Shown: positions 32,610 through 34,796, counted from the first letter of the stretch. The stretch: DNA of 34,796 nucleotides from Bacteriovoracaceae bacterium (GCA_018649885.1 JABIHA010000122.1:62001-96796); one strand, 5' to 3'. Notes: generated by a model from the sequence alone, not told the origin. A program made the numbers and translations.

Positions 32610-33422
32610 ATGATAGAAAATTTACCTGAACTCATTACACAATTTACAATTAAGTTAGTTAGCTTTTTAGTGGCCATTTCTGTCACATGGCTGGCTGGTG
32701 GTTTTTTTAGAAAACTATCTGTAACTACTATGAATCGAGCTAAACTTGATAAGTCTCTTGTGGGATTTATCTCCAAGCTTATTAGGTGGTTGATACTTTC
32801 TATTGGTGTAATCTCAAGTTTAGGTATTTTTGGCATCCAAACTGCTAGTTTTGCGGCCCTACTTGCTGGTGCAGGTATGGCCATAGGAATGGCGCTTCAA
32901 GGAACACTTGGAAATTTTGCAGCAGGTGTAATGCTCCTACTTTTTCGCCCATTTAAGCTGGAAGATGTTGTATCAGTTGGTGGACAAACTGGGGTAGTGA
33001 AAGAGATTGATGTTTTCAACACAGTTTTAGATACATTCGATAATAGAAGAATTATCATTCCTAACGGTCAAGTCTTTGGCAGTAAGATCGAAAATATTAC
33101 TTTTCATCCAAATAGAAGAGTGAGCGTGGATGTTGGCTCTGGCTACAATTCGGATTTAGATACAACTAGAAAAATACTTAGGGACGCCGCCCTAAGAATT
33201 GAGGGCATCTTGAAAGATCCTGCTCCCGCTGTAGTACTACTTGAGCTGGGAGAATCCAGTATCAATTGGTCTGTCAGAGTTTGGGCCCCAAAAGAGATTT
33301 TTTGGGATGTTAAAGATTCACTAACAAGAGAGATTAAATACGCTCTCGATAAAGAGGGAATATCAATACCCTACCCACAAATGGATTTACACCTTCAGGA
33401 CATGTCAGGCCAAAAACAATAA
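32610..33422 (+). CDS. mscS: Small-conductance mechanosensitive channel
   Basis: ALLAGAGMAIGMALQGTLGNFAAG, RPFK, IIIPNG, GISIPYPQMDLH. Confidence 0.95.
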   Translation: MIENLPELITQFTIKLVSFLVAISVTWLAGGFFRKLSVTTMNRAKLDKSLVGFISKLIRWLILSIGVISSLGIFGIQTASFAALLAGAGMAIGMALQGTLGNFAAGVMLLLFRPFKLEDVVSVGGQTGVVKEIDVFNTVLDTFDNRRIIIPNGQVFGSKIENITFHPNRRVSVDVGSGYNSDLDTTRKILRDAALRIEGILKDPAPAVVLLELGESSINWSVRVWAPKEIFWDVKDSLTREIKYALDKEGISIPYPQMDLHLQDMSGQKQ

Positions 33423-33539
33423 TACAGAATTTGTTACATTGTTCTTTGGATAAGATGAAAACCAAATTGATCCCAATAGGGGCTACTCGCCCAAGAAAAA
33501 AATCGAAAAATTGTCGCCAAACAACTAAAGTATAAAACG

Positions 33540-34250
33540 AAGAGGTGGTCAGCAGTCCATCTCCTTGTCAAGTGACCACCATTGAAGTTTGACCTTTGTC
33601 TTCTATCGTAACGTCTCCAAATCGTTGTTTGCAGCCTTCAACATGGGTCTTCTGGCCTTCGTTTTAATCCCATGAGGTCGTTGTTATTGAGGTGAATCCA
33701 TTCGCTCACAGTAAAGACTACCGGCTATCTGTAGCCAAAAAGTAAATATTTATCTTTCTGTAGCATCCAAAAAGAAAACCATCCTAATCTTGCCCAGCAT
33801 GGAATGCCGAGCACTAGGCAGGGACTTAATAACTTTCAGATGGCGCTATGGTGATTGCCCTTAACTCAACCGACGTGGCGTTTCCGCTGGGCTTTTCTGA
33901 CCTTCAAGTTCCCAGTGGCCGTTATAATTTTCGTAATCAGATGATCTTTGTCATCCTGGTCCCGGCGTCTGTCGCTCTCGCTACCAAGGTCGTAGCTGCT
34001 TTTGGTTGACGGCGCCCCACGCTGGGTCCACTGCCATAGTTTCATCAGTATTTTTGCATCCATTAAAGAGTTAATTCGTATTTCTCAGGTTTTGAGACCT
34101 TCGAAATAGTATTGCGAATTTTTTACAGATGGCCGGTAGTCTTTCTGCCCGTGAGATATATTGTGATGGCGTTTCTTGGAAGGGATGATGGAGTCGATAC
34201 GATGAATGAGGTTAGTACGCTTTAAAAGGCCTGTGACAGACCTAGCTTGC
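33540..34250 (+). ncRNA. Candidate large structured non-coding RNA (about 700 nt), family unknown
   Basis: More than ten nested helices including a 21-bp stem 33713-33733/34124-34144, with many G-U wobbles on the + strand; no credible ORF; possible promoter TCGAAA-17-TAAAGT at 33503-33531. Confidence 0.6.
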
Positions 34251-34546
34251 AGTAATTAGATATTTTTAAAGGGCCTTTAGAGCTAAATAAAGAGGACCTT
34301 TTAAGGTCCAACGATAATTTAGGGGGCATTTGAGCTAGGAGAGTAGGGAAGTGGTAATGCTAATTTTGCTTTACCCTATTTCTGCTGATTTTTTTCTAAA
34401 TGCCAATTATTACTTGCAAGGTTTCACAAGAATAATTAATCAATTATCTCTAAGCTCCTGTTTTAATTAAATATTAAGAATTCCTTTCTGTAAAATGCCC
34501 CCCTCATGTAACACTTGGGTATGAACTTATACAAGGGGTTAATATT

Positions 34547-34656: not shown

Positions 34657-34796
34657 GGTCCATTCTCGACACATACTTTACATTTTATTCTCGATACATG
34701 GTTTACACTTTTTAAGGTACTGCAAACAAAGGGGGTTGCATGCCTTGGAAGGAATCTTCGGTTATGAATGAAAGAATGAAATTCGTTATGAGAGCA
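34657..34796 (+). mobile_element. Left end of an IS481-family insertion sequence
   Basis: Tandem subterminal repeats ATTCTCGACACATACTTTACA (34662-82) and ATTCTCGATACATGGTTTACA (34687-707), followed by the transposase start; exact boundary uncertain. Confidence 0.75.
34740..34796 (+). CDS. IS481-family transposase, N-terminus (truncated by the window edge)
   Basis: AGGGGG RBS then MPWKESSVMNERMKFVMRA, the characteristic MPWKE..VM.ER..FV start of IS481-family transposases. Confidence 0.8.
   Translation, partial: MPWKESSVMNERMKFVMRA

Follow-up and report, generated by a model that had tools for sequence, protein, structure and literature searches.

The window analysed here is a stretch of 34,796 nt from the genome of a Bacteriovoracaceae bacterium (GCA_018649885.1; 5.45 Mb in 151 contigs), covering C4:62001-96796 up to the contig end. 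Positions 33477-34144 of the window were shown to be two adjacent copies, here called A and B, of one family of ~400-nt elements that contain no open reading frame (ORF) and are bounded by terminal inverted repeats. The family is real and apparently not yet catalogued; its members are structured mobile elements and are widespread in Bdellovibrionota. Its best explanation, and a rather probable one, is a non-autonomous mobile family with a conserved pseudoknotted fold that is mobilised through a single strand. A sequence-only reading of the same DNA had proposed one structured RNA of ~700 nt over 33540-34250; in blastn and nhmmer searches of the bacterium's own genome that region resolved into modules with independent copies elsewhere, and the supposed single RNA with its rod-like closure proved to be two copies of a ~400-nt repeat, one of them truncated.

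Two adjacent copies of one element family

Copy A is the 5' fragment of an A-type element and occupies 33477-33712 on the + strand, matching positions 3-243 of the 417 in the full-length family profile (nhmmer, E 2e-48). As delimited by blastn and nhmmer, the module spans ~33461-33712 and has other copies on contigs C63, C6 (two), C48, C16, C21, C84, C102 and C93, among others. It shares 90% identity, starting at the terminal repeat, with the complete copy at C63:5835-6069, and scores 97.2 bits with the family covariance model R1 described below. The left terminal repeat of copy A is GGGCTACTCGCC, at 33480-33491. The fragment retains the 5' domain, helix Ha, the 5' strands of helices Hb, Hc and He, and hairpin Hd (33641-33674, + strand), in which the stem CATGGG/CCCATG closes the near-invariant loop TCTTCTGGCCTTCGTTTTAAT. 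It ends at profile position 243, exactly at the start of B, and is therefore without the whole 3' half of the element: three helices lack their 3' strands, and the pseudoknot lacks its partner.

Copy B (33713-34144, + strand, 432 nt) is a B-type element, divergent and complete from end to end. Its left terminal inverted repeat, AAAGACTACCGGCTATCTGTA (33713-33733, + strand), is related to the family end AAAG-N-CTACTCGTG and pairs with the right terminal inverted repeat at 34124-34144 (+ strand). The 21-bp stem that the sequence-only reading had placed at these coordinates is thus real, at 95% complementarity, and corresponds to the terminal repeats of this copy, whose ends AAAGACTACCGG ... CCGGTAGTCTTT are a compensated variant of the family ends. 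Copies of the same type were located by nhmmer at C29:78358-77980, C52:639-186 and C8:50815-50658, with another on C146. The interior of B matches the A-type profile, and its conserved core (Ha, Hb, Hc, Hd, He and Hf; 33845-34038, + strand) was matched by R1 at 32.4 bits (E 7.8e-8, whole genome) and found again by the same model at L273:1744-1937. In the pseudoknot of B, GACC in the Hd loop (33897-33900, + strand) pairs with GGTC (33957-33960, + strand) in the junction preceding CCCGG. This copy does not have the near-invariant TTTAAAC in its Hd loop, and its R1 score of 32 bits compares with 87-181 for other copies in the same genome. Both window copies look defective, and neither appears functional.

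An iterated profile of A also matched the interior of B copies in the bacterium's own genome, which identifies A and B as subfamilies of a single family, with a common core and different 5' domains and ends. Full-length members from genomes and metagenomes measure 367-421 nt, and 10 full-length external copies are bounded by AAAG-N-CTACTCGTG ... CACGAGTAG-N-CTTT. External members were collected by pattern. The first pattern, a 29-mer from the 5' domain, gave 0 matches in genome contigs; the second, the conserved hairpin-loop motif, gave 118 and 113 stretches in genome and metagenome collections, mostly by chance. Sixty-two of the pattern-derived loci match the family profile at E <=0.01 over a length that extends well past the motif itself, and the genome matches of the loop motif are, by their record labels, heavily enriched for Bdellovibrionota. 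Viral contigs yielded 5 pattern matches, 0 of which were upheld by the model, and no family match was obtained in the plasmid and phage collections.

Several general statements of the sequence-only reading about 33540-34250 held. It had reported no credible ORF: none in the region exceeds 65 amino acids (short ORFs of 53 and 65 amino acids are present), and blastx against own-genome ORFs of >=60 amino acids returned self matches only, plus one match of 24 amino acids to a short ORF located at a paralogous copy. The local rise in GC that it had pointed out is likewise present (0.44-0.49 across 33650-34250, 0.30-0.41 in the flanks). It had recognised no hallmarks of tmRNA, RNase P, T-box or an intact intron, and Rfam gave 0 matches at the gathering score on the whole window; in E-value mode only four weak, sub-threshold matches at chance level were returned, and up to E 10 the region had no match to a HEARO or omega-RNA model. 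Eight external family loci searched against Rfam at E <=1 matched only two tRNAs, which adjoin one copy. Literature searches on repeats and structured RNA of Bdellovibrio relatives found no description of such an element, which is weak evidence of its absence from print.

The conserved fold and its covariation

The family fold extends over ~200-250 nt and consists of hairpin Ha, the long-range helices Hb and Hc, hairpin Hd with a near-invariant loop of 20 nt, helix He, a variable hairpin Hf, and a pseudoknot that joins the Hd loop to the junction GGCCCCGA. This fold is strongly supported. RNAalifold applied to 12 full-length copies gave 50 pairs, 29 of them with compensatory change. Among 38 MAFFT-aligned cores, pair 84/127 was found as CG (14), AU (13), GC (7) and UA (3), and pair 132/228 as GC (12), AU (12), CG (5) and UA (5). 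The Hd stem covaries among copies, appearing as CTAGAG/CTCTAG, CACGAG/CTCGTG and CAGAGG/CCTCTG, and in A4 helix 4 (Hd) was 96.8% paired.

Covariance model R1 (193 positions, 28 pairs) was built from 15 cores, with the structure checked by hand. In the alignment of its 94 matches (89 distinct), 88.1% of cells were paired vs 67.6% in shuffles (0/500 as high), a share that is inflated by the fitting of the alignment to the model's structure. The same alignment contains 513 compensated cells vs 155 in shuffles, changes on both sides in 26 of the 28 pairs, and only 30-41% pairing in controls with slid partners. Three results lessen the concern over fitting without abolishing it: the controls with slid partners, the counts from the MAFFT alignments, and the pseudoknot, which R1 does not model. 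The last two are free of this weakness.

At the pseudoknot, GGCC of the Hd loop pairs with the junction GGCCCC ahead of helix He. The pairing is present in 86.3% of cases vs 77.7% in shuffles (0/500 as high), with 20 compensated cells vs 5.6 expected. At least six Watson-Crick variants were found, including GGCC/GGCC, GGGC/GCCC, GGGA/TCCC, GGAC/GTCC, GGTC/GACC and the GACC/GGTC carried by window copy B. The covariation among homologues that the sequence-only reading had listed as a check of its proposal is thus present for the ~400-nt family by RNAalifold, in the MAFFT cores, in the R1 alignment and at the pseudoknot.

The folding energies of single copies are of little help, the two strands of other copies giving folds of similar quality. 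The sequence-only reading had noticed an excess of G-U over A-C mismatches in its stems and had taken this as a sign of selection on the + strand; over the 28 family pairs in 89 distinct sequences the two are nearly equal (G-U/U-G 112, A-C/C-A 103), the bias disappears, and because of this parity the mismatch test picks no strand. The parity may reflect decay of individual inserted copies.

Distribution, genomic position and surroundings

R1 gave 11 matches in the bacterium's own genome. Within the same family of bacteria it matched 55/150 genomes and 39/69 genera, with 1-16 copies each, and 43/110 when good-quality genomes are counted. In a sample of the phylum, 28/150 genomes and 25/99 genera carried matches, and of the 25 families scored the carriers fell in the bacterium's own family and 8 others; occurrence across the phylum was shown to be patchy. 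So far the family is known from Bdellovibrionota and otherwise only from a few metagenome-assembled genomes with other phylum labels. The BLAST comparison advised by the sequence-only reading found a 921-nt stretch in 0/40 relatives and was too insensitive, the covariance model having later matched many of these genomes. Copies are often paired, in tandem or inverted, around ordinary genes (for example in G060, G111 and G145), and the genes between paired elements encode a KatG-type peroxidase, parts of ABC transporters and helix-turn-helix proteins. The family explains some contig breaks.

Mobility was seen in genome G043, in which three copies are 99.3-99.5% identical over 403-406 nt and have unrelated flanks. 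Near-identical units of ~405 nt in unrelated flanks imply that the unit is mobile and moved recently. The element therefore moves as a discrete unit of ~405 nt, with no target-site duplication. Own-genome copies inspected by eye also lacked a target-site duplication; the element boundaries are uncertain by 2-3 nt.

An upstream ORF lies in the same orientation as the element at 12 of 15 own-genome copies and at 27 of 42 loci of other genomes, a modest positional bias toward co-oriented upstream genes. A tRNA gene is located within ~200 nt at 6 of 46 loci, and in five of these six it is co-oriented and upstream; at L288/L269, L296, L298, L319 and L321 the element starts 13-165 nt 3' of a co-oriented tRNA (Pro, Leu, Gly, Pro and Val). 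This adjacency hints that elements are co-transcribed with tRNAs or preferentially occupy the 3' side of tRNA genes. Among the sequencing runs listed as holding the stretch, none is on record as RNA.

No shared neighbour protein was recovered when the genes at 40 loci were clustered, and no nuclease or transposase gene lies beside the copies; the gene neighbourhood of homologues, which the sequence-only reading had recommended for examination, therefore shows no recurrent partner. No parent insertion sequence (IS) with the same ends was found at the 40 loci or between element pairs in a search that was not exhaustive. Candidate partners were then set aside on their distribution. For a TnpB-type partner, PF07282 had 0 matches in the bacterium's own genome, and in an RRXRR search for IscB the control itself matched nowhere. 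For an IS110 partner, PF01548 was matched in one of five carrier genomes (G024) and not in G000, G060, G044 or G043. A reverse transcriptase partner was rejected on the absence of RVT_1 from the near-complete carriers G060 (4 copies) and G044 (2 copies); the bacterium's own genome has one reverse transcriptase, on a different contig. Y1_Tnp is present in 89/150 genomes of the same family and had no match in at least nine carriers (G004, G008, G020, G041, G044, G047, G060, G062 and G063). Three RAYT-like Y1 genes of 188-217 amino acids are encoded in the bacterium's own genome, at C65:4292-4924, C118:4352-5002 and C93:3447-4010, and a link between them and the element was rejected on the other short repeats that flank them, in the classic REP-RAYT arrangement. 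At least two of these genes are flanked on both sides by inverted arrays of their own short repeats (GAAAAAGGTGCCAG... and GGAACCACGTACGAATAG...). In G076:C24, G150:C8 and G056:C25 a RAYT-like Y1 gene lies ~0.2-1.5 kb from an element copy, which may be chance clustering in repeat-rich DNA.

A few individual copies have features of their own. Locus L262:628-1513 (G018:C5) comprises 886 nt between family-like terminal repeats and encloses an ORF of 249 amino acids, with a weak match to AbiGi (PF10899, E 1.8e-5) and not to a transposase; this stretch may be a relative that carries cargo, or a solo end may have come to lie beside it by chance, and it is treated as an oddity. At C6:7400-7560 of the bacterium's own genome, right after a short A-type copy, there are ~7 tandem copies of GGTTACAAA. 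Full-length elements such as L178:421-841 and L130:122-540 carry the box TGCCAAAT twice in direct orientation, one near the 5' end and the other ~70 nt before the 3' end, and these paired boxes could be two promoters or two protein-binding sites.

Upstream of the two elements, an MscS-type mechanosensitive channel gene was identified at 32610-33422 on the + strand from its ORF and Pfam matches (MS_channel_3rd 1.2e-17, MS_channel_2nd 1.9e-17); the pile-up of repeats begins 58 nt 3' of this gene, in the same orientation. Downstream of copy B, 34145-34238 is a unique spacer outside any repeat family, with no copy in the bacterium's own genome by nhmmer or blastn. It is followed at 34241-34378 (+ strand) by a dispersed repeat of ~138 nt, 'C', unrelated to the element family, of which nhmmer found 16 further genome copies. 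Repeat C contains two small GC hairpins, AAAGGGCCTTT and GAGGACCTTTTAAGGTCC; several copies are mutually identical, several lie at contig ends, and some are 2.3-5 kb apart on the small contigs C149 and C23. The contig finishes in the left end of a multicopy insertion sequence (34657-34796, + strand), recognised by a jump in depth and by repeated copies. At 34657 contig depth rises about tenfold, from 4-10 to 40-146, in 4/4 metagenome runs. The 105-140 nt of the IS end recur at 9 further places with 99-100% identity, and at two more as shorter partial matches; the places checked are contig ends, and the IS interior was not found in the assembly. From its N-terminal peptide this insertion sequence may be an IS481 member. 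A pair of direct repeats of 25 nt is located just within its left end, at 34662-34686 and 34687-34711. Contigs of four marine metagenome runs (DNA) have the same arrangement as the window, with the junction of A and B clearly bridged in one run. Sites returned by a promoter scan of the window showed no excess over shuffle expectation.

Interpretation and comparison with known systems

Under the favoured explanation, that of an ORF-less mobile family with a conserved fold, the element would be non-autonomous and would be mobilised via a single-stranded form, either a transcript or single-stranded DNA. The fold of that single strand would be the feature recognised by a trans-acting enzyme or by host machinery. 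Insertion would occur mostly into the 3' intergenic space behind co-oriented genes or tRNA genes, and beside other copies. Selection may act on still-propagating lineages rather than on each inserted copy, which would explain both the compensated pairs between subfamilies and the A-C mismatches as frequent as G-U within copies. The alternative that the sequence-only reading had added to its proposal, an RNA or single-stranded DNA component of a mobile system with its protein elsewhere, fits this ORF-less, repeat-bounded, mobile and covarying family; the association with a reverse transcriptase that it also raised does not, RVT_1 being unmatched in carriers G060 and G044.

A number of observations weigh against this explanation. 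A non-exhaustive search yielded neither a mobilising enzyme nor an autonomous copy, and G043 contains no kb-scale pair of family ends. The ends of the three G043 copies show neither a target-site duplication nor a target motif. No empty site was seen in the contigs of the four marine metagenome runs, and in congeneric genomes one flanking gene only is conserved, at 64-75% identity; these genomes are too diverged for an empty-site comparison by gene order. The paired share in the R1 alignment is subject to the inflation described above. Copy B without its 21-bp arms (33734-34123) folds no better than its shuffles, with z -0.79 on the + strand (16/100 shuffles as good) and z -1.38 on the - strand (10/100 as good). 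A -10-like motif, TGnTAnnAT (TGnTATAAT), precedes each TGCCAAAT box, spotted by eye only, and a consensus scan of one full-length copy found no two-hexamer sigma-70-type site. Many genomes, including the single-contig genomes G259 and G071, contain exactly one copy, which suits a host RNA gene equally.

Such a host gene is the strongest of the competing explanations, though still an unlikely one: the copies would be paralogues in a family of host genes for trans-acting or structural non-coding RNAs, the terminal repeats would form the closing stem of a processed stable RNA, and copies would have arisen by duplication and horizontal transfer rather than by transposition. A multi-helix pseudoknotted fold with long invariant loops is typical of functional RNAs, and the single-copy genomes, the lack of a transposase beside any copy and the modest bias toward sites behind co-oriented genes and tRNA genes all agree with it. 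A host gene family accords poorly with the patchy occurrence (55/150 genomes within one family, with copy numbers from 1 to 16), with three 405-nt units that are 99.3-99.5% identical in unrelated contexts, and with truncated or nested copies, which are common (the window itself and the pairs in G060, G111 and G145). Equal frequencies of A-C and G-U would also be unusual for RNAs under copy-by-copy selection.

It is more doubtful still that the element carries an RNA active in its mobility, either a guide or scaffold comparable with omega-RNA or bridge RNA, or a ribozyme, on a non-autonomous element whose protein lies elsewhere. Conserved unpaired stretches together with a pseudoknot, a discrete mobile unit with no target duplication, and an interior free of ORFs are all as expected of such an RNA, and known guide-RNA elements also leave ORF-less RNA copies, as in the HEARO RNAs. 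Against it, no fitting partner emerged: PF07282 had 0 matches in the bacterium's own genome, PF01548 occurred in one of five carriers, RVT_1 was missing in G060 and G044, and Y1_Tnp in at least nine carriers. The eight family loci compared with Rfam at E <=1 likewise had no match among its models, which include those of HEARO and group II introns. That the conserved core is an RNA which drives or directs mobility, as a ribozyme or as guide or scaffold for a recombinase elsewhere, and so defines an unrecognised class of RNA-dependent ORF-less elements, is put forward as a rather unlikely idea.

The original proposal of one ~700-nt structured RNA over 33540-34250, in which a rod-like helix closes a multibranch core, is now very improbable. 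The minimum-free-energy fold of the + strand includes the outer helix and was lower in energy than all shuffles (z -3.63, 0/20 as good), while that of the - strand was not (z -1.65, 3/20); the excess was lost without the 21-bp arms, and the 21-bp repeat accounts for essentially all of the extra stability of the 711-nt stretch. The colinear outer helix itself, 33582-33712 with 34145-34225, is marginal and conflicts with the family fold. Its duplex has -52.9 kcal/mol vs -43.0 +/- 4.4 in 1000 dinucleotide shuffles of the right arm, so that it beats 975 of them and 25/1000 are as good. The left arm is repeat sequence that has no such partner elsewhere and whose bases pair and covary with different positions in the family fold, and the right arm falls in the unique spacer DNA. 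The 90% identical C63 copy runs on into the family's own 3' half and has no counterpart of the outer helix, and the failure of the 921-nt stretch to find a BLAST homologue in 40 relatives points the same way. Three of the inner helices survive, coinciding with covarying family helices: 33642-47/33669-74 is hairpin Hd of copy A, 33884-91/33911-18 approximates Hd of copy B, and 33980-84/33992-96 is Hf of copy B. A decayed protein gene or a chance structure is scarcely credible, since the short ORFs of 53 and 65 amino acids show no protein similarity to own-genome ORFs of >=60 amino acids, conservation tracks base pairing with indels of any length, and hundreds of compensated cells lie beyond chance.

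Among known systems, the family behaves like miniature inverted-repeat transposable elements (MITEs; Correia/NEMIS, ERIC, BOX, Nezha) in size, ends, copy-number pattern and nesting. It is ~400 nt long and ORF-less with terminal inverted repeats of 14-21 bp, and it is intergenic and dispersed in variable copy number, with nested or truncated copies and near-identical copies in unrelated contexts. It departs from MITEs in target duplication, none having been observed, and in that the non-exhaustive search yielded no parent IS sharing its ends. Conservation in ordinary MITEs is confined to the ends, or the entire element forms a single long hairpin, whereas the interior of this element is a deeply conserved multi-helix pseudoknotted fold with invariant loops in many families of the phylum. 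With HEARO and omega-RNA (IscB and TnpB; IS200/IS605) it shares a pseudoknotted structured unit of a few hundred nt on a mobile element, ORF-less copies at several per genome, and no target duplication. Unlike them it has no Rfam match, no TnpB-type gene in the bacterium's own genome and no nuclease gene at 40 loci, and it has terminal inverted repeats, which IS200/IS605 elements do not.

For REP/RAYT, IS110 bridge RNA, group II introns and retrons, one defining feature that was tested is lacking in each case. The element resembles REP/REPIN-RAYT systems in being intergenic and structured with no target duplication, and the bacterium's own genome has three RAYT-like Y1 genes; REPs, however, are palindromes of 20-40 nt, and these RAYT-like genes are flanked by other repeats. 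Like the IS110/IS1111 bridge (seek) RNA it is non-coding, structured and mobile, with no or tiny duplications, but the DEDD transposase domain PF01548 is found in one of five carriers, not in the bacterium's own genome, and never beside copies. Group II introns and retrons are distinguished from it by the lack of an Rfam match and by the absence of RVT_1 from two carriers. With the large bacterial non-coding RNAs OLE, GOLLD, ROOL and raiA it has in common that it is long, elaborately folded, lineage-restricted and found by comparative analysis; unlike these RNAs it is multicopy, bounded by inverted repeats, duplicated as a unit and without an Rfam match.

If the reading as a mobile family with a conserved fold is true, this is a small mobile element whose interior rivals a riboswitch or small ribozyme in elaboration and is not filler, with a fold kept among predatory bacteria in the bacterium's own family and in eight others. 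Folds of this sort in mobile DNA earlier led to RNA-guided nucleases and recombinases. Because no protein gene adjoins the copies, the family could point either to a new mode of mobilising DNA by way of a folded single strand or to a host RNA with transposon-like spread. Covariance model R1 can annotate hundreds of blank intergenic stretches in Bdellovibrionota genomes.

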